Below are positions 11,030 to 44,642 of a stretch of 64,000 nt of DNA, piece by piece. This stretch comes from Candidatus Saccharimonadia bacterium. GTDB taxonomy: Bacteria; Patescibacteriota; Saccharimonadia; UBA4664. The notes under the pieces are model-generated. The model was given only the letters and a program-made list of their open reading frames with translations. It was not told the origin of the DNA and searched no databases. Positions within the stretch are counted from its first letter, which is position 1; every line of letters begins with the position of its first letter. Both the position numbers and the translations under genes were made by a program. The DNA lies in the NCBI GenBank assembly GCA_035544015.1, contig DATKIP010000076.1:256299-320298 (forward strand), given 5' to 3'.

Positions 11030-11586
11030 ACGACACTCCCGTAGATCGCTTCGGCCGATTGCGCGATCAAAGGCCAGGCGTATTTTTTCGACTCCTCGTA
11101 GCCCTTGGCCGCTACTCGCGAGCTCGATTCATGGTCGGTCATGCACCGTCTCATAGCCTGCATGAGCGAGCGCTCATCGCCCGGCGACACGATATAGGCT
11201 GCCTCGAAATCTGGCGATACCTCGTGCAAAATACCCACCGGCGTTATGATCACCGGCACCGTTGCCGCCCAAGCCTCCAGGAGGGTCAGCGGCGTCGTCT
11301 CGTAGAGCGACGGAAATACGGCCGCATCGGTCCGCGAAAGCATCGTCCTCACCTCGCTCGGGTCCTTACGCCCCACCAAGAGCACCACGTCCTCGACGCG
11401 CAGTTCGCGCGCCAGATCAAGCAGGGCGTCATATTGCGAGCCGTCGCCGATAATTACCACCCGGAACACTCCCGGCAGCTCCCCGATGAGGAGCGCTGCG
11501 GCTCGAATCAGATACTCGCACCCCTTTTGGCGCTCAAGGCGGCCGATCGACAAAAAGGTATAAACCTCCGATTTCACTGACATCAT
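11026..11586 (-). CDS. GT4 glycosyltransferase C-terminal (Glycos_transf_1) domain as a separate ORF
   Basis: 186 aa: ...FPSLYETTPLTLLEAWAATVPVIITPVG..., the donor-binding half only. ATGA overlap with the preceding N-domain ORF. Confidence 0.55.
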   Translation of the reverse strand: MMSVKSEVYTFLSIGRLERQKGCEYLIRAAALLIGELPGVFRVVIIGDGSQYDALLDLARELRVEDVVLLVGRKDPSEVRTMLSRTDAAVFPSLYETTPLTLLEAWAATVPVIITPVGILHEVSPDFEAAYIVSPGDERSLMQAMRRCMTDHESSSRVAAKGYEESKKYAWPLIAQSAEAIYGSVV

Positions 11587-12176
11587 CTTCCCCGCCAGAA
11601 TGCGAGATCCACACCGTTAGGCAGCAGTACGGTTTGGACAAGTCCTGCAGCCTGCAGCTTCGCCACGTCATAACTATTAGGCGCCGTGGCCGAGCGCAGA
11701 TGAGCCGCGCGCGCGAGCCATAGTTCAGATTTTCGACGGAGCGCCGACTGGGTCGCATCGTAGAACGTTACGATATGAAAGGTATGAACCATGGGAATCC
11801 CGTACAACCGGGCCGCAAACGAAACAAAAAAAGCCATATCTATCGAGTGCGTGTGGATCACATCCGGCCGCTCTCTCCGCAAAATACCAAACATCCCCAG
11901 AGATAAAATCACCAGAGACACCAGCCGTTTCGGGGTGATCGAATCAAGGCTGGCCGGAGTATCCTTCATCCCAATCTTGTAGATATGCCGACCCTTAAGT
12001 ATTTCGTTGCAATTTGATGTCACCACCGCTACGTCGTGGCCGGCCGCTTGCTGCTGACGTCGCAAATTGGATACCACTACCGCGTCGCCGCCCAGCGCAT
12101 CGGGATACTTCTTGCAGACATGCAGAATATTCATAGCATGTATGCCTCCACTTGTTTTTTGGCCAGCTGGTTCCAA
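11583..12176 (-). CDS. GT4 glycosyltransferase N-terminal (Glyco_transf_4) domain as a separate ORF
   Basis: 197 aa: MNILHVCKKYPDALGGDAVVVSNL...VHTHS..., the acceptor-binding half only. Stop overlaps the start of the C-domain ORF. Confidence 0.5.
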   Translation of the reverse strand: MEPAGQKTSGGIHAMNILHVCKKYPDALGGDAVVVSNLRRQQQAAGHDVAVVTSNCNEILKGRHIYKIGMKDTPASLDSITPKRLVSLVILSLGMFGILRRERPDVIHTHSIDMAFFVSFAARLYGIPMVHTFHIVTFYDATQSALRRKSELWLARAAHLRSATAPNSYDVAKLQAAGLVQTVLLPNGVDLAFWRGR

Positions 12177-13987
12177 TCGTATTCAGCTACCGGCATCGAG
12201 ATAATCGGCTTACTGGCGAAGGAGATCCAGTACAAAATCGCCTCGCTCAGTGCCCGAGGAGAGAGCACAACCTTGCTCCCATTCAGGCCCTCCTGTATGA
12301 AATGGCGCGCCGCATTGCCGGGGCTATCGATCGTAACGACCGGCGTGCCACACCCTAAGGCCTCGAGCGAGGTAATTCCAAAACCCTCGCGGGTCGACGG
12401 CGAACAAAAAACCCGAGCAGCTTTCATGTAGCCGTACACTTCCGACGCCTCGGGTAGAGAATCCAAGAACGTAATGTTCTTTTCCAGCTTCCGTTTCGTA
12501 ACCTCCTGCTTCAAGCGAGGCTTCTCCAGCCCGTCGCCAATTATCAGGCAAGACACTTCAGGATGGTGTTGCCGAATAATATCCACCGCCGCAATCAGTT
12601 CATCGACGTTTTTGTCTTTCACGAGCCTCCCCACATACAGCGCGTCCACACGAATGGGGCTCGTTCGCACAGCCCTCAGGAGCGAAGCATCAATGCCGGA
12701 GGCCACCAGGTTGACGCGCCGACTGCGCCCGTGAATAGTCTCAAGGAGCTCCTTGGTGTGGGCCGATGCGGCGGTGATGTGGTGAGGCAGGCGAATGCTG
12801 AGCCGTTCAACCCCCGCGGCCACAAATCCACCCATCCCCATGTAGTTGACCCACTCCTGGTAGGTGAGTGCCTCATGCCAGGTAGCCGACAGATTGCGAC
12901 CGCGCAAGGTGCACACAATCCAGGCCGTGAAAATCGGGAAAAACGGCATATGGTCCACATCGAGCACATCAAACTGAACCCGAAAGAGCTTAAAGCACGC
13001 CAAGCCAAACCCTATACCCTCCCGGATCGTCCGGCGGTCCCCATGGTACATCTCGTAATATTTACTCAACGCGTGCAAGTGCACCCCGAATTCCATCCGA
13101 GTCTTAGCGGGTTCATTCCACCAGTGCATGGTATAGATGTGAACGTCATACCCCATGAGCGCCAATCGCTTGGTGATTTCATGCAGGCGCTTTTCTTTTC
13201 CGCCCTTCATATAGGGATAAATCGCATCGCTTACAAATACGATCTTCCGCCCTTCGGGTACCGCCGGGGGGCGCCAGGCCAAGTTCCGCATGAACATGAG
13301 CAGAATACGCGAGCCATCTCTTAGCGGATGCAAATGAGACGCCCCTGCGCGCGGGTGGTAGCTTATCGGAACCGATGCCATCCGATGCCGGAGCCGAGCC
13401 ATTTTGGTGATCATCTCCATCTCGATAGCAAAATCGGTACTTTTAACATGCGGCTCCAGGGCATCGAGTGCCACCTTCTTCCAGGCAAAATATCCCGTGA
13501 GCACATCGGTTACGTTCGCGCCGTACAACACGCGCACAGCGGTCGTGAAGACCCGATTGCCGAACCGGTTAAATCTGCTCATCGCCGTGCTCTGAATCCG
13601 ACCGCCGAGTCTCGAACCCACTACCACATCGCAGAAGTCACTCCGCAATGGCTCTATCACGCGCAGAATTTCCCCAGGGCTATACGTGTCGTCGCCATCG
13701 AGCATCACAACATACTCGGAGTCGGGGGAAACCGTTCGAAATCCGGCTCGCAGGGCATTGCCCTTGCCCTTTTTCGATTCGTGAATCACCGTGGCGCCAG
13801 CTTCTCGCGCAATTTCGGCCGTATTATCAGAAGAGCCATTATCAACGACGAGTATCTCGAGCTGTACGCCATGCCGGGCTAGCTCGTCGAGGGGGAATTT
13901 GGCTATCACATGGCCGATACTGGCCGCCTCGTTATGGCACGGAATCACCACCGCCACTTTGGTAGACTTCGTATCACTTGGTCGCAT
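12131..13987 (-). CDS. Bifunctional glycosyltransferase: N-terminal GT2 (DPM/DPG-synthase-like) fused to C-terminal GT4
   Basis: 618 aa. N-terminus VAVVIPCHNEA...LVVDNGSSDNT...DGDDTY (GT2 DXD). C-terminal half has GT4 motifs (GRLVKDKNVDELI...EGFGITSLEALGCGTPVV). Confidence 0.7.
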   Translation of the reverse strand: MRPSDTKSTKVAVVIPCHNEAASIGHVIAKFPLDELARHGVQLEILVVDNGSSDNTAEIAREAGATVIHESKKGKGNALRAGFRTVSPDSEYVVMLDGDDTYSPGEILRVIEPLRSDFCDVVVGSRLGGRIQSTAMSRFNRFGNRVFTTAVRVLYGANVTDVLTGYFAWKKVALDALEPHVKSTDFAIEMEMITKMARLRHRMASVPISYHPRAGASHLHPLRDGSRILLMFMRNLAWRPPAVPEGRKIVFVSDAIYPYMKGGKEKRLHEITKRLALMGYDVHIYTMHWWNEPAKTRMEFGVHLHALSKYYEMYHGDRRTIREGIGFGLACFKLFRVQFDVLDVDHMPFFPIFTAWIVCTLRGRNLSATWHEALTYQEWVNYMGMGGFVAAGVERLSIRLPHHITAASAHTKELLETIHGRSRRVNLVASGIDASLLRAVRTSPIRVDALYVGRLVKDKNVDELIAAVDIIRQHHPEVSCLIIGDGLEKPRLKQEVTKRKLEKNITFLDSLPEASEVYGYMKAARVFCSPSTREGFGITSLEALGCGTPVVTIDSPGNAARHFIQEGLNGSKVVLSPRALSEAILYWISFASKPIISMPVAEYDWNQLAKKQVEAYML

Positions 13988-20208: not shown

Positions 20209-20688
20209 CTACTCGGGTGGTATATATGGCGTTCGTTCCCCCCAGCCCCAGCTCGGCACCGGCGACTCGTCCGGCACCGGAGCCCCGTTCGCAAACACCT
20301 GGTTCATACGAGTGCCCCACTCAAAATAAGCCACGAAGGCCGAACGAAACTCCGCATCGTTGGGCAACTTCTCGATGTCCGCGGCGCGCTGCATGAGCTG
20401 AATCCACCGCACTCGTGCCGCTTCTGGAATCGTGAGTTCCAGGTGCCGCCGAATCATGTGCGGATGGCCCTTCAAGGCCCCGTAGACCTCAGAATATACC
20501 TTAGGACCGCCAAAAACCTCGATAAGCCACAATGCCACATAATGCTTATGCTTCGCCGACATATGCTCAAAAAACGGCCGCAATAGTTCGTCTTGGAGCG
20601 TCAAATCGTAAAACGTCGTCACGAGCCGCTCAAAGGCTTCGGACCCCCCAGCCCATTCGTACAGTGTTGGAATGTGTCGGTCTGCCAT
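20209..20688 (-). CDS. Truncated haemoglobin (2/2 Hb), group II (trHbO-like)
   Basis: 159 aa: MADRHIPTLYEWAGGSEAFERLVTTFYD...RPFF...HKHYVALWL... Typical trHb N-terminus and length. Confidence 0.7.
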   Translation of the reverse strand: MADRHIPTLYEWAGGSEAFERLVTTFYDLTLQDELLRPFFEHMSAKHKHYVALWLIEVFGGPKVYSEVYGALKGHPHMIRRHLELTIPEAARVRWIQLMQRAADIEKLPNDAEFRSAFVAYFEWGTRMNQVFANGAPVPDESPVPSWGWGERTPYIPPE

Positions 20689-21331: not shown

Positions 21332-21898
21332 ATGATGCTCAAGATTCAGATTATCCTCGGGAGCACACGCCCCGGCCGGACCGGTGAGGCGGTGGCCCGA
21401 TGGGCCTACGAAATGGGTCAAAAACGGACCGATTTTGAAGTCGAACTGGTCGACGTCCAGGACTATGATCTACCCTTACTCGACGAACCGGTGCCGCCCT
21501 CGGTCGCCGATCAGTACACCAAAGAGCACACCAAACGCTGGTCTCAAAAAATCGCCGAAGCCGACGGCTACGTCATCGTCACCGGCGAGTACAATCACGG
21601 CATTCCTGGCGCGCTCAAAAACGCTATTGATTTCCTCTCGCGCGAGTGGCGTGACAAATCGGTTGGGTTCGTGAGCTATGGCTCATCATCGGGCGGCGCC
21701 CGGGCCGTGGAGCATCTGCGCGGCGTCGTCAGCGAGCTTCAGTTGGCCGATGTCCGCGAGCAACTGATGCTCTTTTTGCGATCTGATTTTGAAAATATGA
21801 AAGACTTTCAACCCACCTCGCATCACGAGGCCCAACTCAACAAAATCTTCGACCAAGTCGTTCGCTGGGCCGGCGCCCTGAAGACCCTGCGCAACTAA
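21332..21898 (+). CDS. NADPH-dependent FMN reductase family flavoprotein
   Basis: 188 aa. N-terminal IILGSTRPGRTGE motif and flavodoxin-like fold blocks. Confidence 0.7.
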   Translation: MMLKIQIILGSTRPGRTGEAVARWAYEMGQKRTDFEVELVDVQDYDLPLLDEPVPPSVADQYTKEHTKRWSQKIAEADGYVIVTGEYNHGIPGALKNAIDFLSREWRDKSVGFVSYGSSSGGARAVEHLRGVVSELQLADVREQLMLFLRSDFENMKDFQPTSHHEAQLNKIFDQVVRWAGALKTLRN

Positions 21899-24586: not shown

Positions 24587-24842
24587 ATCATCTCCTTGAT
24601 GAGCCCCATAATAGTGATGGTTCTGGAATGAGATGATGCAGACCGCGTGGGGAACACAGCGAAACAAAATCGACAAGCGAGGTGCTTGTTTCTAGATCAA
24701 TGCAATTATACTACATTCCCGGCCATATGTGAACCTGCCGACCGAAGAGAAGCGAACACCGTCCAGGTTGCTCTCAGGAAAGCCTCACATAATCAGTTTA
24801 TATTATATAGTGAATAAGCATGTGACCCTGAGGGATGTAGCC

Positions 24843-25331
24843 GTGGATACCCCGAAACCGAGGAACAACCAGAAGCTAGCCGCCGTCTTTGGCCTGGTGG
24901 TAATAGTAGCTGCGATAGGAGCGGGGGTGGCCTTTTTGGCACCAAAATCAGACGGCCAAGTCATCGGCGGCGCCACCTCGCCCACGCCCACCGCTACGGC
25001 TGACGCCACCCCGACCGCAGCCACCACCAGCGCCGCCTACAAAGACGGCACCTACACAGCCAACGGCAGCTACGACTCGCCCGGCGGCCTCGAAACCGTT
25101 CACCTTAGCGTCACCCTCGTCAGCGGCTTGGTGAGCGATTCGAACGCCACCACCACCGGCAACAATCCCACCGGCCGGCTGTATCAGGGCAAATTCCTCG
25201 GCGGCTACAAGGGCCTCGTGGTGGGTCGCAATGTCGACTCCATCAAACTCTCGCGTGTCTCGGGTTCGTCACTAACGTCCGGTGGCTTTAATGATGCCCT
25301 CGCCAAGATCAAGACCCAAGCCAAGGCCTAA
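24843..25331 (+). CDS. Membrane-anchored FMN-binding domain protein (FMN_bind, likely ApbE substrate)
   Basis: Start chosen at the GTG preceded by an AGGGA SD (alternative GTG at 24822). N-terminal TM helix, C-terminal FMN_bind-like domain with candidate flavinylation motif SRVSGSSLTSGGF. Immediately upstream of apbE. Confidence 0.5.
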   Translation: MDTPKPRNNQKLAAVFGLVVIVAAIGAGVAFLAPKSDGQVIGGATSPTPTATADATPTAATTSAAYKDGTYTANGSYDSPGGLETVHLSVTLVSGLVSDSNATTTGNNPTGRLYQGKFLGGYKGLVVGRNVDSIKLSRVSGSSLTSGGFNDALAKIKTQAKA

Positions 25332-26241
25332 CGTCGCGGGCCCAGCCACCCGCCAATGGCAATTTGACGCCATCGGCACGCGCTGGTCCGTTGAGGCCCT
25401 GCAGGTGGTGCCGCCGGCCGTTTGGGCTCGGGCCCGTCGCGCCGTCGCTGGGCGCATTGAGCAGTTCGATCGCGATTACTCGCGGTTTCGGGCCGATTCG
25501 CTCGTATCGGCAATGGCCCGCACCGCCGGCCGCTACCAGCTGCCGCCCGACGCGCAGCCGCTATTTGATCTGTACCGCGAGCTCTACGACCTCACCGCCG
25601 GCGCCGTCACGCCGCTCGTGGGCGGGCTGCTGGCCGCCGCCGGGTACGACGCCGCCTACAGCCTGCGCCCCGGCACCCTCACACCCCCGCCGGCCTGGCC
25701 CGGCACGTTGCGCTACGAATTTCCGCACCTCACCCTGGCCCGCCCCGTCTCCCTCGACCTGGGCGCCGCCGGCAAAGGCTACCTGGTAGATCTGGTGGCC
25801 GGCGTGCTGCGGACCCACGGCATCACGGCCTATTGCGTCGACGCCGGCGGCGACATGGCCCACCAGGGCGCGCTCGAGGCGGATCCCCTGGCCGTCGGGC
25901 TCGAGCACCCCGCCGACGCCGGTCAAGTCATCGGCGTGGCGCAGCTGCGCAACCAAAGCCTCTGCGGCTCGGCTGGCAACCGGCGAGCGTGGGCGGGCCT
26001 CAATCACATCATCGATCCGCATACACGGACATCACCCACCCACCTTCGCGCGGTCTGGGCGGTAGCCGACACCACCCTGCTCGCTGATGCCCTCACCACG
26101 GCGCTTTATTTTGTGCCCCCGCCGATACTGGCGGCTCATTATGTCTTTGAATACGCTCTCGTCTACGAAGATTTCTCGCTCGAGCACTCCGCCGATTTCC
26201 CCGCCGCCTTTTTTACCACCCCTGCAATCAGTGCTCTATAA
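25282..26241 (+). CDS. apbE: FAD:protein FMN transferase (ApbE family)
   Basis: FDAIGTRWSV N-terminal motif, GAAGKGYLVD and VDAGGDM conserved blocks. Start uncertain; overlaps the upstream gene. Confidence 0.75.
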   Translation: MALMMPSPRSRPKPRPNVAGPATRQWQFDAIGTRWSVEALQVVPPAVWARARRAVAGRIEQFDRDYSRFRADSLVSAMARTAGRYQLPPDAQPLFDLYRELYDLTAGAVTPLVGGLLAAAGYDAAYSLRPGTLTPPPAWPGTLRYEFPHLTLARPVSLDLGAAGKGYLVDLVAGVLRTHGITAYCVDAGGDMAHQGALEADPLAVGLEHPADAGQVIGVAQLRNQSLCGSAGNRRAWAGLNHIIDPHTRTSPTHLRAVWAVADTTLLADALTTALYFVPPPILAAHYVFEYALVYEDFSLEHSADFPAAFFTTPAISAL

Positions 26242-26248
26242 TGAACCA

Positions 26249-26902
26249 ATGCATATTCGCGCCGCCATCATAGACTTCGACAAAACGCTTACCACTGCCG
26301 ATATGTCCGATCTGTTGGCCGAAACCGTCGGCAAAAAGGCCGAAAGCCAACAGCTCAACCAACTGTTCCAAAACGGAAAACTTCGGGGTCTCAACGGGCT
26401 GGTTCAGCGCGTCAATTTTCTGACCGGGTTGTCGATAGACCAGCTCGAAGCCTTTGCCGAGCAGCATGATTGTTTGCGCCCCGGCGCCGTGGCGCTGTTT
26501 GAATATTTTCGTCGTCATCATATCGTCACCATCATTGCTTCGGGCAGCACCGTGCCGTTCCTCGAAATCTACCAACGCCGACTCGGCGCCGATTACGTGG
26601 TGGGCAGCCGCCCGGCCATGAACGGCGCCATCATGGGATCGGTCACCGAAGCCGATTACTCCGGTCCCGACTTCAAGGTTCGAGACTGCCGAGTGATCCT
26701 GGAGCGCCTGCATATCCCGGCCGAGAATGTGGTCGCCATCGGCGACTCCATGGCCGATCAGGGAATTTTCGAATTCGCGGCCTGCAGCATCGCCATCGAT
26801 CCCCACCCCGGCATCGTGGCCTACGCCGATCATGTCATCGCCCACGATCTGACCCGCGCCCTACCGATTCTCGACCGCCTCAGCGGACGGGCCGCCGCAT
26901 GA
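26249..26902 (+). CDS. HAD-superfamily hydrolase (phosphoserine-phosphatase-like subfamily)
   Basis: ORF trimmed to MHIRAAIIDFDKTLT (motif I DxDxT). Motif IV GDSMADQG present. Confidence 0.6.
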   Translation: MHIRAAIIDFDKTLTTADMSDLLAETVGKKAESQQLNQLFQNGKLRGLNGLVQRVNFLTGLSIDQLEAFAEQHDCLRPGAVALFEYFRRHHIVTIIASGSTVPFLEIYQRRLGADYVVGSRPAMNGAIMGSVTEADYSGPDFKVRDCRVILERLHIPAENVVAIGDSMADQGIFEFAACSIAIDPHPGIVAYADHVIAHDLTRALPILDRLSGRAAA

Positions 26903-27474
26903 TCAGTCTGCGGACTGCCGCCGTTTGGGCCACCGGAGCTGCCATGACGCTGGCCTCGGCCTGGCCGCTGGCAGCGAGCGCTCATGTCGTGAAGTCCGAC
27001 GGCCAAATCACCGCGCTGCTCCACGTTAATCCCTACGATGAGCCGTTTACCGGCCGGCCGGCCAACCTCGTGTTTTCGGTGACCGACGCTAGCAGTCGGT
27101 TTGCCGCCGCCGATTGCGACTGCCACCTCACCGTCGAGCGCGACGGCCACCGCCTCACCGATCAAACCCTCGCCGCCAAAACTTCCGAATACGGCCCGCG
27201 AGCATTCGTAGTGCCGTACACGTTCGGCGCCTCCGCCGTCTATACCATCCGCCTCGCCGGCCGGCCACGGGCGGCCCCGTTTCAGGCCTTTGCGCTTAGC
27301 TACATTGTCCGCGTCGGCCCCCCGCCAACCTCGGGCGCCGCTGGCCTCAATCCCTACGTCGCCGGCTTCGTCGTGCTCATGGTGATCGCGGCGGCCGGTC
27401 TGGCCGTTGCGGGGGTGCAGCTGAGTCGCCAGCCGCGATCCGCTAAACAACCAAAGGAGATACACCGTGCGTAA
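26899..27474 (+). CDS. Secreted, C-terminally membrane-anchored protein with a mature N-terminal His (candidate CopC-like copper-binding fold)
   Basis: Signal peptide ...ASA|HVVKSDG... Internal CDCH. C-terminal TM helix. ATGA-type overlap with the next gene. Confidence 0.35.
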   Translation: MISLRTAAVWATGAAMTLASAWPLAASAHVVKSDGQITALLHVNPYDEPFTGRPANLVFSVTDASSRFAAADCDCHLTVERDGHRLTDQTLAAKTSEYGPRAFVVPYTFGASAVYTIRLAGRPRAAPFQAFALSYIVRVGPPPTSGAAGLNPYVAGFVVLMVIAAAGLAVAGVQLSRQPRSAKQPKEIHRA

Positions 27475-28060
27475 ACCGTTACTGCCCATCATTATCACCA
27501 TTTTTGCCAGTCTCGTACCCCTGAGCGCATCGGCCCACGTGGTCGTTGGGCCTGCCCAAGTCGGCGTGGGCGCGCTCCAAGCCTTTAGCGTGGGCGTGCC
27601 CAACGAGCGCGACTCGGCCACCGTCGCGTTGCGCCTGGTAATACCCGGCGGCCTCGCCTCTGTCAGGCCCAACGTCAAGCCCGGCTGGACCATCGCCATG
27701 GCCAAAACCGGTTCCGGCGACGATGCCCGCGTCACTGAGATCACCTGGACCGGCGGCCAGATCCCGCCCGACCAGCGCGACGAGTTTGCTTTGAGCGCTC
27801 AAGCTCCAGCCCAGCCCACGTCGCTCACCTGGAAGGCCTACCAAACCTACGCCGACGGCACCGTCGTATCATGGGACCAGGCCCCCGATGGCAAAGGCGA
27901 TGAGCATATCAAGCCATACTCGGTCACCAAGGTGATCGACGACCTCGCTACCGGTCCCACCACCCCCGCCACGTCCGCCGCCATGGCGCAAACCGCCCTC
28001 GTGATCGCCAGCCTAGCGCTGCTCGTAGCCGCCGCCGGATTTGTACGCCGCCGCCGTTAG
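27467..28060 (+). CDS. YcnI-like (DUF1775) extracytoplasmic copper-binding protein, C-terminally anchored
   Basis: Signal peptide ...SASA|HVVVGPAQV... with the mature N-terminal His typical of YcnI. Conserved VPNER, PGW, ITWTGG, WDQ blocks. C-terminal TM followed by an RRRR anchor. Confidence 0.55.
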   Translation: MRKPLLPIIITIFASLVPLSASAHVVVGPAQVGVGALQAFSVGVPNERDSATVALRLVIPGGLASVRPNVKPGWTIAMAKTGSGDDARVTEITWTGGQIPPDQRDEFALSAQAPAQPTSLTWKAYQTYADGTVVSWDQAPDGKGDEHIKPYSVTKVIDDLATGPTTPATSAAMAQTALVIASLALLVAAAGFVRRRR

Positions 28061-29390: not shown

Positions 29391-30992
29391 TTACCGCAGC
29401 ACGTCGTCACGCTTATCGCGCAAAAACGCATTCCACTGCTCAATAATCCGCAGCAGCGTCTTAAACGGTGTCTCGATAATAATGTCCAAAATCGCCGTAA
29501 AAATATTAATCCGGCTATAGCGTTCGGCCAGCCATTGCCCCGTGCGAATGAACGGCGTCAGCAAAAAATCGCTAAAACTCGTGAGCAGCCCGGCCTCCTC
29601 CTCGATCACCGCGTACTCCCGCACCGAATACGAGATGCGGTAGGCAAAAAAGCTAACGGTCGACAAAAACACAAAGAAAATAATCCCGCTCACGATATTA
29701 AACCCGGCCAGACGCAGCAAGTACGAAATCCCGGCCAGCGTCGCTAGTGAGGTCACACCGTAAACAAAACTAAAGGCCTGCCGCGTCATCGAGCGCCGGC
29801 CTCGAGTACGCAGCGAGTACACCAGCGGTTGGTCCGATTCGTAAACAATGCGCTTGAGATCGCTCAAAATCTTGGTCGTATTGCGCTGGCCCGGAATTTT
29901 AATACCAAAGCCCACCATCGCCATATAAAACGGCGGGAAAGCCAAATTTATCGCCAACGGCACGTAGCTAATGGCCCCGTACACAAACATCTCATACGGC
30001 ACTTCCACGAGAATCCCCAACACCATTTTGGTCACAAACAAAAAGATAACGGCTTGAATCACGCTCCGCCGCAGCCGGCCCGACACCACTTGGTATTGTT
30101 GCTCGGCCACGCTGCGGGCTTTTTCCATCAGCACGGTCGGGGTAGTCGCCAGCTGCTCCAATCCTTCGGTGCTGGTTTTGATAATCTCGCGCAATATCAG
30201 ATACGGCGCGATGTGCCGCCGCACCAGGCGGAACATTTTGTGGGGCCGCGTACCTCCCGTTTGCTCGGCCAGCTGCGCATTGAGCTCGGCAAAATGCCCG
30301 GCCGCAGCCGCCAGCTGCTCGTCGTCTTCGAGCCAGCGCGGGAACGCCCGCGAAAACACGCCGTACCGAATCGTCGCGATATCAGATTTGAGCAGGGCCT
30401 TGTGCGCGGCCGCATAGAGCGCCAGCTGGTCTTCCTTGGCCACATCCGCATGTCGAATGAACGACGCGTAAGTGAACTCCACAATCGCCGCCTCGCTGGG
30501 GCTGGGCAGCAAGGCGCGCTCCAGTTCCACCGAGAGCAGCTGCACGATGGCCGCCGCCACCGCCTCTTCGTCGGCCCCGCCCTGGCTCAGCGCCCCTTGC
30601 TGTAAGGCGGCGTAGCGTCCCACCAGGTAATCCAAGTAAGCCACTTCGTCGTCCGTGACCGTGTCGTTGTGCAGGTAGCGCGTTTTGGTGAGCTCACTTA
30701 CGAGCTCAAACCCCAGGCCGTCAGTGTCGGCCGACTTGAGCTCGCGCAGCAAAAACCGCTCGATCGCCCCGCGCACAAACAGGTGCTGCTCGCGATATTC
30801 CACGGCGTTGCGGATTTGTTCATAAAAAAAATGCGCCCCGGCCGTAATTTCGGGCACATGAATTTTGACACCACTCCACGTCGGCCGCGACCGATGGCGC
30901 AGCAGCTGCACGAGGCCCTGCATGAGGGGTGAAAGTTTCGGAGCCGTCTCGGTAGGAGTGGTCTGGGCCTGGCTCTCAAGCGGATTTCGCAT
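29391..30992 (-). CDS. Hypothetical protein with an N-terminal soluble domain and C-terminal multi-TM region
   Basis: Real 3-prime part of the 939-aa ORF 29391..32210. Trimmed to the Met at MRNPLESQ because upstream codons are antisense to pgi. Possible later start at MQGLVQ. Confidence 0.4.
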
Positions 30993-31025
30993 ACAACAAT
31001 TATACCAAACATGTACAATCGAACC

Positions 31026-32606
31026 ATGAAACTCACCAATCTGCCCGAATGGAAGTCCCTCGAGCAACATCACGTTACCGTCAAAGATATGCACCTGCGC
31101 GAATTGTTTGCCGCTAGCCCCGGCCGGGCCGAGGTACTCAGCCTCGAAGTCGGCGACATTTTCGCCGACTATTCCAAAAACCGGCTCACGGTCACCACGC
31201 TTGAACTGCTCGTGGATTTGGCGCGCGCGGCCGGCGTGGAGCGCCTGCGCGACGACATGTTCGCCGGCGTCCCCATCAATACCACCGAGAATCGCGCCGT
31301 GCTCCACACAGCCCTGCGCCGCCCCGCCTCGGCCGGCCCACTCGTGGTAGACGGCGCCGATGTGATGCCCGCCGTTCACGAGGTGCTCGACCGCATGGGC
31401 GCCTTTGCCGAAGCCGTGCGCTCCGGCGAGTGGCGCGGCCACACGGACAAGCGCATCACCACCGTCATCAACATCGGCATCGGCGGCTCCGACCTCGGCC
31501 CGGTAATGGCCTATGAGGCCCTGCGCTTCTACGCACAGCGCGATCTCACGGTGAAATTCGTCTCCAACATCGACGCCACCCACCTCGTAGAAGCCACCCG
31601 CGGCCTCGACCCAGCCGAAACACTCTTTATCATCGCGTCCAAAACCTTCACCACGGACGAAACCATGACCAACGCGGCATCGGCCCGCGAGTGGCTGCTG
31701 GCCGCCCTCCACGACGAAGCCGCCGTGGCCAAGCACTTTGTGGCCGTATCCACCAACGCCGAAGCGGTGACCGCCTTCGGCATAGACCCGGCCAACATGT
31801 TTGGCTTTTGGGATTGGGTCGGCGGCCGGTACTCGCTCACTTCGGCCATCGGCCTGTCGCTCATGGTCGCCATCGGCCGCGACCACTTCGCCGATCTGCT
31901 CGCCGGCTTCCACGCCATGGACAGGCACTTCCGCACCGCCCCGCTCGAGCACAACCTGCCCGTCACCCTGGCCCTCATCGGCCTCTGGTACACCAATTTC
32001 TTCCATGCCGAAACCGAAGCCATCCTCCCCTACGACCAATACCTCAGCCGTTTCCCAGCTTATTTTCAGCAAGGCAACATGGAATCCAACGGCAAGTCCG
32101 TCACCAAGGCCGGCGAACCAGTCGATTACGCCACCGGCCCGGTTGTCTGGGGCGAGCCCGGCACCAACGGCCAGCACGCCTTTTACCAGCTCATCCACCA
32201 AGGCACGCACCTCGTCCCCGCCGATTTTATTGGCTTCACCAAGCCACTAAACCCACTCGGCCAACACCACCCCAAGCTCATGGCCAACCTCCTGGCCCAA
32301 ACCGAAGCCCTCGCCTTCGGCAAAGCCTCGGATGAGCCCCACCGCAATTTCCCCGGCAACCACCCCACCAACACCCTCCTCGTCACCCAGCTCACCCCCC
32401 ACACCCTCGGCCAGCTCATCGCCCTCTACGAGCACAAAATTTTCGTCCAAGGCGCCATCTGGCAAATCGATTCCTTCGACCAATGGGGCGTCGAGCTCGG
32501 CAAAGTCCTGGCCAAAACCATTTACACTGACCTGCAAGCCGGTCACCCTTCCGAGCACGACAGCTCCACCGCGCAACTCATCGAGCGCTACCTTCACGGC
32601 CGCTAA
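31026..32606 (+). CDS. pgi: Glucose-6-phosphate isomerase
   Basis: Full-length match to bacterial Pgi ([28 protein letters not shown] blocks). Start at MKLTNLPEW (alternative ATG at 31011). Confidence 0.9.
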
Positions 32607-36358: not shown

Positions 36359-39300
36359 CTAATCCTCGCGCTCGCACCAAGCGCGCGCATTCTGAAACAT
36401 CCGCAGCCACGGACTCGCCTCAAACCCCTGCCATTCCGTCGGCAGCCACGGCCACTGCCATAGCGCATTGGCCATGCGCTCCGGGTGCGGCATCATGGCC
36501 AGATGGCGGCCGTCGGGTGAGCACAGCGCCGTGATGCCTTCGGGGCTGCCGTTGGGGTTAAACGGATAGGCCGTGGTCGGCCCGCCGTCGGGCTCCACAA
36601 AGCGCAGGGGCGCCAAATTGCCCGCACGAATATCGCGCAGCACCTCCGGCGTCGGCACGTGCAGCCGGCCTTCGCCGTGCGCCACCCATACCCCGAGCCG
36701 CGAGCCCTCCATGCCAGCGAGCATGATCGCCGGGCTCGGTCCAATCTCTACCGTTGCCAGCCGCGACTCAAACCGGCCCGACGCGTTCTGCACAAACCGC
36801 GGCTTCTCGTCGTCCGGCAGCTGCGCAAACGGCGCCCAACCCAACAGTGCCATGAGCTGCGCCCCGTTGCATACGCCGAGCGAAAACGTGTCGGTGCGGG
36901 CATAAAAGCTCGCAAACTGATCCGCCAGGACCGGGTTAAATCGAATGACTCCGGCCGAACCCTTACCCGCGTCGAGCACGTCGCCAAAGGAAAACCCACC
37001 CGGAAACGCCACGCCGCGAAATTGCTCCAACCCCACGCTGCCCGTTAGCAAATCGCTCATGGTAACGTCCCAGGCCTCAAAACCGGCCGCCACAAACGCC
37101 GCCGCCATCTCGCGGTCGCCGTTGGTGCCGGCTTCGCGCAGCACCGCCACCTTGGGCGCCGCCAATCCCGGCCCAATAACGGTCGCCGCGGAGGGCGAGA
37201 CCGGCTTAAAGGTCAAATGCCAGCGCGGATTCACGCGCGGCGCGGCCATCACCGCCGCCTCATCGGCCACCAGTTTGGGGTTGGCCTGGAGCGCGTCGAG
37301 TCGGCTACTAGTGGCTTCCCAGAGCCCGCGCAGCTCGTGCAGCGGTACATCGACCAGCGCGTGGCCGCCGGCGCTCACGCGCACCGGAGCGCCCGCCTCG
37401 CCCACGCGCCCCACCGTGGTGTGCGCTACGCCGTCGCTGTCGAGCTCAGCCCGCACTGCCTCGGCCGCGGCCGGCGCCACTTCGAGCAGCACGCCCAGTT
37501 CTTCGCAAAACAGTGCCGCCAGCGGCTCCTCCGCACCCGGCAGCTCAAGCTCCAGGCCCAGGTTACCCGCCAGTGCCATCTCGATAGCCGTCACCACCAA
37601 GCCGCCGTCGCTGCGGTCGTGGAGCGCGCGCACGCGACCGCGCCGAATCAGCCCCTGCACGCTCACAAACGCTTGCCCCAGCACGGCCGGGTCATCGAGG
37701 TCGGGCGCCTCGTCGCCGATTTGCCCGTAGGCCTGCGCCAGCGCCGAGCCACCCAGCCGTGTGTGCCCGCCGCTCAAATCTACCAATATCAAAACATTGC
37801 CCGCACCCTTAAAATCGGGCGTGATTTTTTGGCGTACGTCCGGCATCACCGCATACGGCGCTACCACCAGCTGCCCCGGCGCCTTCACCATACCCCCTGG
37901 GGTTTGAGCGGCCATCGAGAGGCTGTCCTTGCCACCGTCCACCGCCATCCCCAGCGCGGTCATGGTGTCGCTCATGGCGACCGCCGCTTCATAGAGCCGC
38001 GCGCCCTCGCCCTCGAGCTTGGCCGGCCACATCCAGTTGGCGCTGGCCCGCACATCGCCCAGGTCCGAAATCCGCGCGCCCATCAGGTTGGTAATCGCCT
38101 CGCCCACCGTCATGCGGCCCTGCGCGCCCGGCGAGACCAGCCCAATGAGCGGCCGCTCGCCCTGGCTCACCACGGTACCGCTGTTGCCAAAGAGGCTATG
38201 CGCCACCACGCCGTAATCCGCCAGCGGGGTCTCGAGCGGTCCCACCCCTTGCTGCTGCGCGACGAGCCCGGTCACGCTCCGGTCAACCTTGCGCGTCAGC
38301 CAGCTTTTGGAGCCCACGCTCACCAGCCGCAGTACCCGCTCGAGCGCCTGGCGCACCGTCAGGTCGGCGGGCAACTTCAGCGGCCGCAGCACTGGCGGCT
38401 GCGTGGTGAGCTCCACCGTTTTGGCCACCGAGTCACCCAAGACAGCCTCAAGCGGCAGGTTTACCGGCGTCGTATCGTCGGTCGCATCGTGCACCACCAG
38501 CTGCCCATCACCGGTGATTTCGCCCACCACTGCCACCGGCGCTTTCTCGCGCGCGCAAATTGCCTCAAACCGCGCCAAATCCTCGGGCCGCAGTAGCAGC
38601 GCATCGCGCTCCTGCGATTCATTGCCCCAGATTTCCAGCACCGACAGCGTGGCGTCGCCCACCGGAATCGCGCGTAGCTCGATACGCCCGCCCACGGGGT
38701 TGGCAATCTCCGGCAGGGCATTCGAATCGCCGCCGGCGCCTAAATCGTGCGCCGACACAATCGGGTTACTCGCGCCCAGCTCCACGCAGGTGCGAATCAC
38801 GCGCCCCAGCCGCTGCTCCATCTCGGGGTCGCCGCGTTGCACCGCATTAAAATCGAGGGCCGCCGAGTTGTCACCGCTCATGAGCGAGCTGGCCGCACCT
38901 CCGCCCATGCCGATCCGGTACGCCGGGCCACCCACCTGCACGATGAGCATTCTTGGCTCGGGAAGGCCTTTTTCGGCATGATTCGCATCAAGCATACCCA
39001 CGCCCTCGCTGTACATCACCGGCTTAAACCATGCCCGGTAGCCGCCCGGCGTGGTTTGGCCGAACGTCCGCACGTGTCCCAAGAGCACCGGCTCGCCAAA
39101 GCAGTTACCGTAATCCGAGGCGCCATTCGAAGCCTCGATCAGAATGTCGAGCGGCGAAGCCAAATTCTCCGGATGCGCCACGCCGTCTTTCTCCCAGGGC
39201 AGTTCGTAGCCGGGAATGTGCAAATTCCCCACGCTGTAGCCCACCCCGCTCGCCACCACTAGGCCACCCCGCCCCACCGCCTGATTGTCGCGAATCCGCC

Positions 39301-40246
39301 CGCCGGTACCCGTGGCCGCGCCCGGGTACGGCGCAATACCCGTCGGGAAGTTGTGGGTTTCGGCCGTGAGCGTGGGATGATACGTGCGGTCGTCGATCAC
39401 AAATCGACTCGCCTCACCCGGCCGGCCTGGCGCCATCACATGCACCCGCCGACCCTCGATAGCCGAACTATCGTCGTGAAATGCGATCACCGAATTATTC
39501 GGGTTGGCCCGCCACGGCGCCTTCACGATCTTCATGAGGCTCGTATCGAGCGGCCGGCCGTCAAGCACCAAGCTACCCCGAAAAAACCCGTGCCGCGCGT
39601 GCTCATTATTGGCTTGGCCAAGGGAAAATATCTCAACATCCGTCGGGTCACGCTGCAACCGATTTACGAATAATTCCGCGTAACTGGCCATATCCTGCTC
39701 ATCCATAGCCAGCCCAAATTCCTGGTTGGCCCGGCGCAGCGCCTCGATACCGTCGCGCAGTACCGGCACGGTGCGCACCGGCTCCGGCGCCCCGCTCACC
39801 GCCAGCGTGGCCGGCGCCTCATGGTACGGCTGCTGGGTCATGCGGTCGGCCAGCGCCGCCTCGAGCTGGCCGCGCTCATCCGGCCCCAGCCGCTTCGAAA
39901 ATCCCAGCCGCCGTGCCCGCTCAATCCGGATCACGCTGTCAAGCCCCACCGCTCGGCAAATCTGGCGCGCGGTACTCGCCCACGGCGTCTCAAAGTTCAG
40001 TCGCGGTCCGATCTCGATCACGCTCGGATGCTCGGTCAAAAAAGACGCCTCGCGCGTCCCCCAAGGGTCAAATGTCTCGCCGAGCAGCCACTGGAGCTGC
40101 CCAATTTCGCCTTCGCTGAGCTGCCGCGCCGTCTCCACGTAATACACCCACTCGGCCTGTACTGACCGCGGCGCCGCGATTCCAGCCGCTTCCAGTTGGC
40201 TCAATTCACGCGCCCGCAGTTTGTCTCGGCGATGAAACTTGTACAC
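36359..40246 (-). CDS. purL: Phosphoribosylformylglycinamidine synthase, single-chain large form
   Basis: 1295 aa, collinear with E. coli-type PurL including the C-terminal glutaminase domain (GVCNGAQLMALLG, MMPHPER). Confidence 0.9.
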   Translation of the reverse strand: MYKFHRRDKLRARELSQLEAAGIAAPRSVQAEWVYYVETARQLSEGEIGQLQWLLGETFDPWGTREASFLTEHPSVIEIGPRLNFETPWASTARQICRAVGLDSVIRIERARRLGFSKRLGPDERGQLEAALADRMTQQPYHEAPATLAVSGAPEPVRTVPVLRDGIEALRRANQEFGLAMDEQDMASYAELFVNRLQRDPTDVEIFSLGQANNEHARHGFFRGSLVLDGRPLDTSLMKIVKAPWRANPNNSVIAFHDDSSAIEGRRVHVMAPGRPGEASRFVIDDRTYHPTLTAETHNFPTGIAPYPGAATGTGGRIRDNQAVGRGGLVVASGVGYSVGNLHIPGYELPWEKDGVAHPENLASPLDILIEASNGASDYGNCFGEPVLLGHVRTFGQTTPGGYRAWFKPVMYSEGVGMLDANHAEKGLPEPRMLIVQVGGPAYRIGMGGGAASSLMSGDNSAALDFNAVQRGDPEMEQRLGRVIRTCVELGASNPIVSAHDLGAGGDSNALPEIANPVGGRIELRAIPVGDATLSVLEIWGNESQERDALLLRPEDLARFEAICAREKAPVAVVGEITGDGQLVVHDATDDTTPVNLPLEAVLGDSVAKTVELTTQPPVLRPLKLPADLTVRQALERVLRLVSVGSKSWLTRKVDRSVTGLVAQQQGVGPLETPLADYGVVAHSLFGNSGTVVSQGERPLIGLVSPGAQGRMTVGEAITNLMGARISDLGDVRASANWMWPAKLEGEGARLYEAAVAMSDTMTALGMAVDGGKDSLSMAAQTPGGMVKAPGQLVVAPYAVMPDVRQKITPDFKGAGNVLILVDLSGGHTRLGGSALAQAYGQIGDEAPDLDDPAVLGQAFVSVQGLIRRGRVRALHDRSDGGLVVTAIEMALAGNLGLELELPGAEEPLAALFCEELGVLLEVAPAAAEAVRAELDSDGVAHTTVGRVGEAGAPVRVSAGGHALVDVPLHELRGLWEATSSRLDALQANPKLVADEAAVMAAPRVNPRWHLTFKPVSPSAATVIGPGLAAPKVAVLREAGTNGDREMAAAFVAAGFEAWDVTMSDLLTGSVGLEQFRGVAFPGGFSFGDVLDAGKGSAGVIRFNPVLADQFASFYARTDTFSLGVCNGAQLMALLGWAPFAQLPDDEKPRFVQNASGRFESRLATVEIGPSPAIMLAGMEGSRLGVWVAHGEGRLHVPTPEVLRDIRAGNLAPLRFVEPDGGPTTAYPFNPNGSPEGITALCSPDGRHLAMMPHPERMANALWQWPWLPTEWQGFEASPWLRMFQNARAWCERED

Positions 40247-40358
40247 CCATACTCCCCATCATTTAGCCGTATCTTGGTTTATCCGCCGGGCTTCGTCAAT
40301 CCTTACTTTGATCTGGTGTCGATAACCGCTAAACTTATGAAGTAATGTTGCGGAACAA

Positions 40359-40925
40359 ATGACCAAACTCGCCGTGATGGTGTCGGGCGTGGGCTCGATA
40401 CTCGAGGCTATACTCGAATCCGGCCTCCAGGTATCGTTGGTAGTGGCCGACCGCCAGTGTCGCGGGCTCAAATTGGCGGCCGATGCCGGGATTCCGGTCG
40501 AGCTCGTCGAACGTAGCAACTACGGCCATAGCTTCGACCGCCTGGCCTATTCACACCGCCTCGCCGGCGTGCTCAAAGCCCACCACATCGATCTTGTCGC
40601 CATGGCCGGCTTCATGACCGTCCTCGATAAGCCGATTTTTGACCATTACGAAGGCAAAATCCTCAACACCCACCCCTCGCTTCTGCCGGCCTTTGCAGGC
40701 GAACGAGCGGTGCAAAATGCCCTCGATTACGGCGTCAAATTGACCGGCTGCACCATCCACATCGCCACCATCAAGCTCGATGACGGCCCCATTTTGGCCC
40801 AGGAAGCCGTGCCGGTATTGGCCGGCGACACGGCCGAATCGCTCCAGGAGCGCATCAAGCAAGTGGAGCGCCGGCTGTATCCCGAAACTATCCGCCACCT
40901 AATCACGAAAGCGAGCCCCGTATGA
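40359..40925 (+). CDS. purN: Phosphoribosylglycinamide formyltransferase
   Basis: 188 aa: LAVMVSGVGSILEAIL, N-10-formyl-THF binding block NTHPSLLPAFAG, HxxD. Confidence 0.85.
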   Translation: MTKLAVMVSGVGSILEAILESGLQVSLVVADRQCRGLKLAADAGIPVELVERSNYGHSFDRLAYSHRLAGVLKAHHIDLVAMAGFMTVLDKPIFDHYEGKILNTHPSLLPAFAGERAVQNALDYGVKLTGCTIHIATIKLDDGPILAQEAVPVLAGDTAESLQERIKQVERRLYPETIRHLITKASPV

Positions 40926-42025
40926 GTAAACCCGGCCTCAAATACGCCGACACCGGCGTTGATTATAGCGCCCTCGACCCCTTTAAGCGCCTCGCCCAGA
41001 CGGCGGCCGCCCAGACCGCCGGCAATGCCCAGCGCCTCGGTTTCACCGAGCTATCATCGAGTCGCGGCGAGAGCGCCTACCTCATTGAGGCCGCCGACCA
41101 CTTCATCGCTCATGTCGAGGAGGGTCTCGGCACCAAAAACCTCGTGGCCGACGCCGTGCATGAGCTCACCGGCCGCCAGTATTATGACGCCATCGCCCAA
41201 GACACCGTCGCCATGATCGTCAATGACATGATCACGCTCGGCGCGCTGCCGGTCTCGGTGGCCATGCACGCCGGCGTCGGCGACACACGCTGGTTTGCCG
41301 ACGAGGCCCGCGCCGCCAGCCTCGTGGCCGGCTGGAAGCACGCCTGCGACCTGGCGCGCGCCGTGTGGGGCGGCGGCGAGTCGCCCGGGCTCACCGGCGT
41401 GGTGGAGCCCCACGCCGTGGTGCTGGCCGGATCGGCCGTGGGCGTCATCAAGCCCAAAGACCGCCTCATCACCGGCAACATCGCCGCCGGCGATGCCATC
41501 GTGATGTTTGCCAGCACCGGCATCCACGCCAACGGCCTGTCGCTGGCCCGCAAAATCGCCCAGTCCACCGGCTACGACGCCACCTTGAGCGACGGCCGCA
41601 CCTACGGCGAGGCGCTCCTCGATCCCACGCATATCTATGTCCCCGTTATCGAGGACGTGCAGGAGGCGGGCATCAAACTCCATTACGCCGTCAACATTAC
41701 CGGCCACGGCTGGCGCAAGCTCATGCGCGCCGTCGAGCCGTTTGTGTACGAAATCGACACCATCCCCGAGCCGCAGCCGGTCTTCACCTTCATGCAGGAG
41801 CACGGCCCGGTCGACGACGCCGAAGCCTACGGCAACTTCAATATGGGCGCCGGTTTCGCCGTGTACGCTCGCCCCGAAGACGTCGCTCGCATCATCGAAG
41901 TCGCCGCCAGCCATAGCATCAAGGCGTGGCTAGCGGGAACTATCCGCAAAGACGCAGATCAGAAAAAGGTCGTCATCAAGCCAAAAAACCTAACGTACGA
42001 AGGAGACTCACTCGGTGTCCGCTAA
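40922..42025 (+). CDS. purM: Phosphoribosylformylglycinamidine cyclo-ligase (AIR synthase)
   Basis: 367 aa. YADTGVDYSALD N-terminus, AIRS and AIRS_C domain blocks. 4-nt overlap with purN. Confidence 0.9.
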   Translation: MSKPGLKYADTGVDYSALDPFKRLAQTAAAQTAGNAQRLGFTELSSSRGESAYLIEAADHFIAHVEEGLGTKNLVADAVHELTGRQYYDAIAQDTVAMIVNDMITLGALPVSVAMHAGVGDTRWFADEARAASLVAGWKHACDLARAVWGGGESPGLTGVVEPHAVVLAGSAVGVIKPKDRLITGNIAAGDAIVMFASTGIHANGLSLARKIAQSTGYDATLSDGRTYGEALLDPTHIYVPVIEDVQEAGIKLHYAVNITGHGWRKLMRAVEPFVYEIDTIPEPQPVFTFMQEHGPVDDAEAYGNFNMGAGFAVYARPEDVARIIEVAASHSIKAWLAGTIRKDADQKKVVIKPKNLTYEGDSLGVR

Positions 42026-43454: not shown

Positions 43455-43521
43455 CGAACCATCACGCTAGGGTATAGCGGGGTTGTCCTGTTTTGTAATA
43501 CCTCTAGTGCTGCAACAGTAG

Positions 43522-44160: not shown

Positions 44161-44194
44161 AATAACAGGTTCGAAAGTGATTCCTTGGTTGGGC

Positions 44195-44229
44195 AAAAAA
44201 TGACAAAAATTGTCAAAAATTCCCCATGC
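44195..44229. repeat. Copy 2 of the conserved AT-rich palindromic element (AAAAAATGACAAAAATTGTCAAAAATTCCCCATGC)
   Basis: About 35 nt upstream of the HD-domain gene start and about 12 nt downstream of the PRTase-domain stop. Approximate coordinates. Confidence 0.6.
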
Positions 44230-44240
44230 GACACGCCGGA

Positions 44241-44642
44241 CTATACATTCTCCCAAAAAAAGTGAGGCGGATTTCCGTCGCACGTCTCACCCACGAAGTC
44301 CGGCAGAAGACCACCATTCGAAGCAATTAAGACGCAACTTTTTGCCATACCTCCGCGCTCCCGAACCAGAGCAACCGCCTTGCGCGTGAGCAGCCCGCGC
44401 TTACTCGCGTCATCCACTACTAGTACCCGACGTCCCGTGCAATCGCCCAACGTTGCCAACTCATCGAGATGATAGTCGCCAGTATCGTCCTTGTAGACGG
44501 GCAGACCAATCACGTTCCGGCTACGTATGCCCAGCCGCTTAGCAAGGACGGCCGCCGTCGGAAACCCACCCGTGCTGAGTCCAATGATCGTATCAGGCGC
44601 AAACCCCTCGGCCTCAATTTTGGCAACGACGAGCTCAATAAA
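44241..44642 (-). pseudogene. Gpt-like (xanthine-guanine) phosphoribosyltransferase domain with no start codon of its own, in frame with the upstream hydrolase across a single TAG
   Basis: 133 codons: FIELVVAKIEAEGFAPDTIIGLSTGGFPTAAVLAKRLGIRSRNVIGLPVY...RVLVVDDASKRG..., collinear with E. coli Gpt residues ~13-150. No ATG/GTG/TTG between the TAG (44643-44645) and the conserved core. Same reading frame as 44643..45575. Confidence 0.5.

Follow-up and report, generated by a model that had tools for sequence, protein, structure and literature searches.

The window analysed here is a 64-kb stretch of DNA (positions 1-64000) from a Candidatus Saccharimonadia bacterium, and the locus under study consists of five genes, g1 to g5, on its + strand. 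According to the open reading frame (ORF) listing, five intact, co-oriented ORFs fill positions 24843-28060. They encode an FMN-binding-domain protein (g1), an ApbE-family flavin transferase (g2), a HAD-IB phosphatase (g3), a secreted beta-sandwich protein (g4) and a YcnI-type protein (g5). The reading that we favor, at a probability of about one half, is that the five genes form a composite operon specific to this lineage, in which two separately conserved pairs, g1-ApbE and g4-YcnI, work side by side with the HAD-IB gene between them. We rank this reading first because each pair is conserved separately, their junction was encountered in no other species, a promoter-like site precedes the HAD gene, and short overlaps between adjacent genes are common in the window. 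The same order of g1 to g5 recurred in independent assemblies (Logan SRR8863102 and ENA ERZ27251635), with proteins that are 99-100% identical, and the arrangement is therefore not an assembly chimera. The best matches of g1, ApbE and g4 were found in metagenome-assembled genomes of Candidatus Saccharibacteria/Saccharimonadales, and the host probably belongs to this group as a G+C-rich member.

When one genome per species was scanned, 80 loci containing a g1 homologue were retrieved, distributed among Saccharibacteria and other members of the Candidate Phyla Radiation (CPR), Micrococcaceae and Microbacteriaceae. ApbE directly followed g1 in essentially all 80 loci. In 71 of the 77 loci that extended far enough beyond ApbE, the third gene encoded a fusion protein of ~510 aa, which combines an NqrB/RnfD-like membrane domain with a C-terminal NAD_binding_1 domain (PF00175) and is referred to here as NqrB-FNR. 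The six g1-ApbE loci without this gene contained DoxX-like or unrelated genes and no copper genes; in two of them (L017 11253-11666 and L021 5439-5837) ApbE was followed by a small protein of 133-138 aa with four transmembrane (TM) segments that is DoxX-like by eye. A HAD, g4 or DUF1775 homologue was present within 10 kb of g1-ApbE in 0/80 genome loci. The closest relatives of g1 (L164, L166 and L175) retained gnd-g1-ApbE synteny, and their contigs stop at ApbE. This gene set corresponds to the 'NQR/RNF-like system' described by Meheust et al. (2021, eLife, PMC8238504), in which electrons are predicted to flow one way from NAD(P)H to the FMN-binding domain, and which occurs mainly in Actinobacteria and CPR bacteria. 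We conclude that the g1-ApbE pair is part of this described, predicted system and that the window lacks the membrane subunit of this system, as tblastn detected no NqrB-FNR homologue anywhere in the 64 kb.

For g4, we collected 80 metagenome loci using an eight-sequence g4 alignment as the query, and added one further locus (L001). Of the 62 loci in which the contig continued far enough past g4, 47 contained a same-strand DUF1775 gene directly downstream of it. Directly upstream of g4, 33 of the 40 loci with room for another gene encoded a membrane protein containing the Ferric_reduct domain (PF01794, above the gathering score). This protein consisted of the membrane domain alone in 16 loci and was fused to two extracytoplasmic HxHP-motif domains, with motifs of the MHLIxVDxxLxYFxHIHP type, in 17 loci. 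The cluster order in the CPR metagenome contigs was PF01794 protein, g4, in some cases a small TM protein bearing an H..CC motif, and DUF1775/YcnI (examples are L169 5338-8235, L171 5495-8631, L001 8423-11623 and many of L084-L163); in some g4 loci an H...CC motif was present either in the small TM protein or in a C-terminal extension of g4. Because the PF01794 protein was encoded upstream in 33/40 loci, it is plausible that g4-YcnI needs a reductant. The closest g4 relatives had a gene for a YibE/F membrane protein directly upstream (L003 2-1087 and L174 1-675), not flavin genes, and this protein may supply the g4-YcnI system with a permease component. In L103 (7196-8479) a YibE/F-family protein was also encoded upstream of the ferric-reductase gene. 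Neither ferric-reductase (PF01794) nor YibE/F homologues were found in the 64-kb window.

None of the 80 metagenome loci, nor L001, contained g1, ApbE or HAD near g4, and in the other loci examined HAD accompanied neither g1-ApbE nor g4-YcnI. Only in this species did we see the g1-ApbE/HAD/g4-YcnI junction. The initial annotation of this locus had proposed that a flavinylation module is linked to copper proteins as one system, a proposal that does not pass the co-occurrence check set out with it, as FMN_bind-ApbE beside YcnI or g4 was absent from both sets of 80 loci and from L001. Its wider suggestion that the copper pair is tied to an extracytoplasmic source of electrons fared better, except that the partner in other loci is the PF01794 protein rather than the flavin module. 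Its remark that the cluster lacks CopD agrees with our finding of no CopC or CopD label within +/-10 kb. In the literature searched, we found no link of flavinylation or ApbE with DUF1775, YcnI or copper, no link of DUF1775 with ferric reductases or Saccharibacteria, and no bacterial ferric-reductase-domain protein tied to YcnI or copper. The PF01794-g4-YcnI cluster appears to be a candidate cupric reductase/chaperone system not described before, and we consider this cluster, which lies outside the window, the most interesting lead. The five-gene arrangement in the window is a species-specific variant assembled from known kinds of parts and provides modest evidence for a new system.

The g1 gene (24843-25331, + strand; 162 aa) starts with the GTG at 24843, which is preceded by a GAGGGA ribosome-binding site. 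In the protein, a TM helix near the N-terminus (about residues 10-34) is joined by a Thr/Pro/Ala-rich linker to a domain comprising residues 66-162. Pfam and NCBIfam scans gave no match of g1 itself to FMN_bind (PF04205) at E <= 0.1, and 10 of 23 sampled members of its family matched this model weakly (best E = 3e-4). The profile of the g1 family identified a solved FMN-binding domain (8p2a) with E = 0.008, aligning the invariant VSGSSLTS of the family on VSGATYTS. The domain was modeled by AlphaFold2 (AF2) with pLDDT > 90, and a Foldseek search with this model returned 8p2a (target-normalised TM-score 0.67, E = 0.02) and 3o6u, with IscU-like folds scoring similarly. On the profile evidence, we regard g1 as a distant FMN_bind relative, NqrC/RnfG-like in type, that falls below the threshold for a member. 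The earlier description of g1 as an FMN_bind protein with a flavinylation-like motif is supported indirectly, through the family, and the window protein itself is not matched by Pfam. The family comprises more than 1,600 proteins, for which the JGI name is 'FMN-binding domain'.

The putative flavinylation motif of g1 is S140-G-S-S143, encoded by nucleotides 25260-25271. Residues 137-143 read S-R-V-S-G-S-S and preserve the [S/T]-G-x-[S/T] core together with the acceptor Ser. G141 and S143 are invariant across the family, and one relative (P0010) has SGAS. Relative to the published consensus, D-x-x-[S/T]-G-A-[S/T], both the Asp and the Ala are replaced by Ser in g1; changes of Asp to Ala and of Ala to Val in this consensus were found to lower, not abolish, flavinylation (PMC12052999). 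As a separate observation, PF04205 largely misses this FMN-binding family of Saccharibacteria and Micrococcaceae, and surveys that are based on the Pfam FMN_bind model may under-count flavinylation substrates in CPR bacteria.

The g2 gene (25282-26241, + strand, with an alternative ATG start at 25291) encodes an ApbE-family FAD:protein FMN transferase. The match to PF02424 was unambiguous (E = 1e-37, 130 bits versus a cut-off of 25.6, with 247 of 266 profile positions aligned), and the identification of this gene as apbE is confirmed. The protein contains neither a signal peptide nor a TM segment, no 15-mer has a hydrophobicity above 1.8, and the frame is open for only about 10 codons ahead of the ApbE homology. 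Likewise, 79 of 80 homologous ApbE ORFs (the ApbE genes of L004-L083) were devoid of a signal peptide or TM segment, and the proposed action of this enzyme outside the cytoplasm is not supported. ApbE proteins without a signal peptide are known to function in the cytoplasm (PMC12052999). As this ApbE has no export signal, flavinylation of an externally exposed g1 domain is unexplained. The signal-less enzyme contrasts with its substrate, the g1 family, whose members are anchored in the membrane at the N-terminus and have a Ser/Thr/Pro-rich linker, and the combination poses a topological puzzle over the site of flavinylation. An FMN_bind family that escapes Pfam, together with a signal-less ApbE, may help to explain the apparent under-representation of flavinylation in CPR bacteria.

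Comparison with the published NQR/RNF-like clusters (PMC8238504) revealed the same g1 and ApbE genes in the same order as in the 77 related loci, and in the same taxa (Saccharibacteria/CPR and Micrococcaceae). The window differs from these clusters in that HAD-g4-YcnI replaces the defining fusion gene, the g1 motif is SGSS instead of SGA[S/T], the g1 protein is missed by the Pfam FMN_bind model, and the ApbE belongs to a subfamily without an export signal. The extracellular electron transfer system of Listeria (FmnB/PplA) is similar in having a Gram-positive-type surface protein with FMN attached by ApbE, as predicted for g1, which could reduce extracellular metal ions. In that system FmnB is an exported lipoprotein, whereas the ApbE of the window is signal-less; NDH-2, EetA/B and quinone components are absent here, and the acceptor would be protein-bound copper.

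The g4 gene (26899-27474, + strand) encodes a secreted protein that was predicted to be cleaved by signal peptidase at ASA|H29 and to contain a C-terminal TM helix at about residues 149-176. The signal peptide, mature N-terminal His and C-terminal anchor are in agreement with the earlier description of this protein. No Pfam or NCBIfam model matched g4 at E <= 0.1, and a profile built from 54 family members matched no PDB sequence at E <= 10, CopC included; membership of g4 in the CopC family was rejected on these grounds. The signal-strapping families DUF4198, DUF6702 and Ang-1/2 were also considered and rejected, as all four differ from g4. An exhaustive profile search placed 1,589 representative clusters (clustered at 50% identity) in the g4 family at E <= 1e-3. 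The family, for which there is no Pfam model or solved structure, appears to be new.

Conservation within the g4 family was examined in an alignment of 226 members. His42 (nucleotides 27022-27024), Pro45, Asp47 (27037-27039), Cys73 (27115-27117) and Cys75 (27121-27123) are present in all 226. Ala28, at the -1 position of the signal peptidase site, is conserved in 222 members, and His29 (26983-26985) and Asp63 (27085-27087) in 225 members each. In the CDCH motif that had been pointed out earlier, C-x-C is kept in 226/226 and the His is not conserved. The AF2 model of g4 (pLDDT 90) shows a beta-sandwich of eight strands, with the TM helix after it. Among periplasmic copper proteins, CrdA was the closest match to this fold, and PmoD, P19/FetP and CopC were also retrieved; the structural matches further included the iron/copper proteins P19/FetP/Tp34 as well as numerous generic Ig-like domains with comparable Z. 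In the model His29 opens strand 1 and His42 ends strand 2 of the first hairpin. Judging from the strand order, His29 and His42 should be cross-strand neighbors with Asp47 in the next loop, and Asp63, Cys73 and Cys75 should lie at the opposite end of the sandwich. We conclude from the model that g4 is best described as a copper-chaperone-like beta-sandwich that is not CopC; the CopC-like character assigned earlier is not borne out at the level of sequence.

The N-terminal His of g4, in combination with the His/Asp residues, resembles the Cu(II) site of CopC. Compared with the periplasmic copper-binding beta-sandwich proteins CrdA from Helicobacter pylori (9ll2), PmoD (6cpd), CopC (5icu) and P19/FetP, g4 differs in that no sequence homology was detected, the ligand positions are not the same, Cys-x-Cys takes the place of Met-rich loops at the second site, and a C-terminal anchor is present. 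The two residue clusters at opposite ends of the sandwich recall those CopC variants in which a Cu(II) site and a Cu(I) site occur together.

The g5 gene (27467-28060, + strand) starts with the GTG at 27467 behind an AAGGAG ribosome-binding site. Its product matched DUF1775 (PF07987) with E = 3e-27 (96 bits versus a cut-off of 25), and phmmer identified the YcnI structure 7me6 with E = 1e-12. The alignment to Bacillus subtilis YcnI (7me6/7mek) begins at the mature His that follows signal peptide cleavage at ASA|H24, and a hydrophobic segment at about residues 178-195 would serve as the C-terminal TM anchor. The assignment of g5 as a YcnI-like DUF1775 protein with a mature N-terminal His and a C-terminal anchor was therefore correct. 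B. subtilis YcnI binds Cu(II) through a mono-histidine brace formed by His27, Glu50 and Trp137 (PMC8424229). All three ligands are retained in g5 as His24, Glu47 (23 residues farther on, as in the B. subtilis protein) and Trp136, and g5 is thus predicted to bind Cu(II).

The B. subtilis ycnKJI operon (PMC8424229, PMC12362106) and the window share a YcnI protein of the same architecture with the His/Glu/Trp ligands kept, and in both cases YcnI is paired with a second membrane-tethered beta-sandwich carrying an N-terminal His. This partner is g4 in the window and the CopC domain of the CopC-CopD-YtkA protein YcnJ in B. subtilis. Unlike the Bacillus system, the window encodes no CopC, CopD or YcnK, and g4 is unrelated to CopC in sequence and contains an invariant CxC; the ferric-reductase-domain partner that g4-YcnI has in other genomes is in turn lacking in Bacillus. 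Outside the window, the position of g4-YcnI behind a PF01794 protein is reminiscent of the MsrQ/YedZ-type proteins and of the eukaryotic FRE/STEAP reductases, and by analogy suggests reductive handling of metal at the cell surface, as in eukaryotic copper and iron uptake; the window itself encodes no PF01794 protein. The g4 family would be a second, undescribed partner family of YcnI, and together with the PF01794 protein it offers a concrete candidate for a bacterial cupric reductase/chaperone relay in CPR.

The g3 gene (26249-26902, + strand; 217 aa) is a HAD phosphatase, as originally assigned. It matched PF12710 with E = 2e-17 and the HAD-IB model TIGR01488 with 68.3 bits, above the cut-off of 45. 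Its score with the SerB equivalog model TIGR00338 (66.7) was below the cut-off of 144. The sequence points to a SerB-like HAD-IB enzyme with DFDKT starting at residue 9, and because there is no export signal the protein is predicted to be cytoplasmic. The most plausible start is the ATG at 26249, since DFDKT is then located at residue 9 and other gene callers pick the same start.

The five genes are packed tightly. The g1/g2 overlap is 41-50 nt, the g3/g4 overlap 4 nt and the g4/g5 overlap 8 nt; with the HAD start placed at the DxDxT-proximal Met, a gap of 7 nt separates g2 from g3. The initial annotation of five co-oriented, overlapping genes is accurate apart from this ApbE-HAD gap. Short overlaps of adjacent genes were frequent throughout the window, and for that reason gene overlap alone is weak evidence for shared function. 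A consensus scan identified a putative promoter-like site upstream of g1 (CTCACA-16-TATAGT, 24784-24811, + strand) and a second, near-consensus one (TTACCA-18-TATAAT, 26213-26242, + strand) that overlaps the ApbE stop codon. The -10 element of the latter ends 6 nt ahead of the HAD ATG, and this site could be an internal promoter giving rise to a leaderless g3-g5 (HAD-g4-YcnI) transcript.

The composite operon would operate as follows. In the first module, ApbE would attach FMN to Ser143 of the SGSS motif in the membrane-anchored, NqrC/RnfG-like g1 protein. This module would be the flavoprotein half of an NQR/RNF-like system, which in nearly all relatives would be fed by the NqrB/RnfD-FNR fusion protein that is absent from the window. 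The second module, g4 plus YcnI, would be a cell-surface copper-capture pair, both members of which would leave the cytoplasm, acquire an N-terminal His when the signal peptide is removed and stay attached to the membrane through a C-terminal helix. YcnI would bind Cu(II) via its His/Glu/Trp site. In g4, the putative Cu(II) site would be formed by His29, His42 and Asp47 at one end of the beta-sandwich, and at the other end Cys73-x-Cys75 and Asp63 may hold Cu(I) or undergo dithiol/disulfide cycling. In most other genomes this pair would be served by the ferric-reductase-domain (di-haem) membrane protein, which is absent here. The two modules would share transcription and otherwise act independently, each relying on partners that are encoded elsewhere or have been lost. 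The data show the gene content, the domain families, the conserved residues and the separate conservation of each pair, whereas flavinylation, the binding of metal by g4, its two-site geometry, the topology and the independence of the modules are inferred.

Several observations weigh against this view. The tight packing, with its 4-nt and 8-nt overlaps and the 7-nt ApbE-HAD gap, was found in three assemblies and fits a selected, co-expressed unit. Both modules are without their usual membrane electron conduit at this locus, which would be neatly accounted for if one module now serves the other. The SGSS motif of g1 has neither the Asp nor the Ala of the flavinylation consensus (PMC12052999), and flavinylation at this motif is predicted. 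Finally, the span of the genome that we examined is 64 kb, and the location of the partners elsewhere is an assumption.

The strongest alternative to two modules working side by side, which we hold only tentatively and consider clearly less probable, is a refined form of the model in the initial annotation, a flavin-driven cupric reductase in which ApbE-flavinylated g1 replaces the ferric-reductase haem protein as the electron donor to g4-YcnI. An NqrB-FNR protein encoded elsewhere would move electrons from NAD(P)H through the membrane to the FMN on g1, from which they would pass to Cu(II) at the His sites of g4 and YcnI, and the resulting Cu(I) would move to the CxC of g4 and on to an importer. 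The recurrence of the tight, co-oriented arrangement in independent assemblies is consistent with such a relay, as is the fact that g4-YcnI usually has a partner for electron transfer across the membrane (33/40 loci) and is missing that reductant here. Flavinylation clusters with a secreted CXC protein provide a precedent, namely DUF4266 in DsbD systems. The terminal acceptor of the NQR/RNF-like systems is not established, and metal assimilation was suggested for some of them (PMC8238504). The site at which Cu(II) is reduced during uptake is itself stated to be an open question for the YcnI/CopCD-type route in the work on B. subtilis YcnI/YcnJ (PMC12362106), and the PF01794-g4-YcnI cluster is relevant to this question.

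The comparative results argue against flavin-driven reduction. Neither the 80 g1 loci nor the g4 loci showed the two pairs together, the closest g4 relatives lie behind a YibE/F protein and not beside flavin genes, and flavin-driven Cu(II) reduction at this locus is without comparative support. In the 64-kb window g1 is without a transmembrane conduit, the ApbE is signal-less and leaves extracytoplasmic flavinylation of g1 itself unexplained, and the pairs are split by the gene for a cytoplasmic HAD protein and by a possible internal promoter. More speculative still is a unifying interpretation, which we view as doubtful, in which g4 represents a new, large surface copper-handling family centered on CPR, whose members would combine an N-terminal-His Cu(II) site and a CxC Cu(I)/redox site on a single beta-sandwich, and forms with YcnI the acceptor end of reductive copper uptake, the electrons coming from the ferric-reductase haem protein in most lineages and from the flavinylated NqrC-like protein here. 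On that interpretation this would be the first flavin-dependent cupric reductase system and would supply direct evidence of extracytoplasmic Cu(II) reduction in YcnI-type import.

The composite operon, as we have described it, assumes that g4 handles copper. It is quite unlikely that g4 is instead a thiol-redox protein or a surface protein for another metal (Ni, Zn or Fe) that merely travels with YcnI, in which case the CxC would form a redox-active or structural disulfide with DsbB- or thioredoxin-type partners, and the N-terminal His would bind another metal. Ferric-reductase-domain proteins also serve in iron reduction and MsrP-type repair, which fits this possibility. DsbB adjoins g4 in L172/L173, thioredoxin and thioredoxin reductase are encoded near g4 in L001/L171, and DsbA in L171. 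The iron/copper and Ig-like proteins among the structural matches of g4, at similar Z, point in the same direction. In addition, the metals bound by N-terminal-His families from signal-strapping are not limited to copper and include nickel among others (PMC12537917). On the other side, the constant partner YcnI is a Cu(II) protein by experiment (PMC8424229), CopA, CsoR, HMA and cupredoxin genes flank the g4-YcnI pair in several loci (L001 and L139/L140), and His/His/Asp plus the N-terminal amine constitute a CopC-type Cu(II) ligand set. Least likely of all is that the locus consists of decaying remnants, two orphaned extracytoplasmic halves that are being lost from a streamlined genome after a rearrangement or deletion took the NqrB-FNR and ferric-reductase genes; this would fit an arrangement unique to this species from which both usual membrane partners are absent at the locus and throughout the window, but the five ORFs are intact and have good ribosome-binding sites, all of the invariant residues are kept (VSGSSLT in g1; His29, His42, Asp47, Cys73 and Cys75 in g4; His, Glu and Trp in YcnI), and the 99-100% identity of the proteins across separate samples suggests purifying selection.

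Several other features of the window were recorded. A short distance upstream of gnd and the g1 operon are genes for a truncated-haemoglobin-type globin (Bac_globin, 20209-20688, - strand) and an NADPH-dependent FMN reductase (FMN_red, 21332-21898, + strand); an FMN_red gene was also present near g1-ApbE in the related contig L175. Three tandem paralogues of 670-691 aa with a pectate-lyase-like domain (Pect-lyase_RHGA_epim) occupy 185-6350 on the - strand and are followed by a polysaccharide-synthesis and glycosyltransferase cluster (6353-13987). GC skew was negative in every 2-kb bin of positions 1-64000 and the cumulative skew fell steadily to -4.2, which places the whole window on one replichore with no switch. 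An ORF of 939 aa (29391-32210, - strand) without a Pfam match overlaps the phosphoglucose isomerase gene (31011-32606, + strand); other gene callers end this - strand gene at 533 aa, and the 939-aa form is probably an artefact that stems from high G+C content. Genes for de novo purine synthesis are located at 36359-48624 and encode FGAR amidotransferase (1,295 aa), a formyltransferase, an AIR synthase-like protein, adenylosuccinate lyase, SAICAR synthetase and AICARFT/IMPCHase. The de novo purine pathway is absent from many CPR bacteria, and its presence would be unusual if the host is indeed a Saccharibacteria-type organism.

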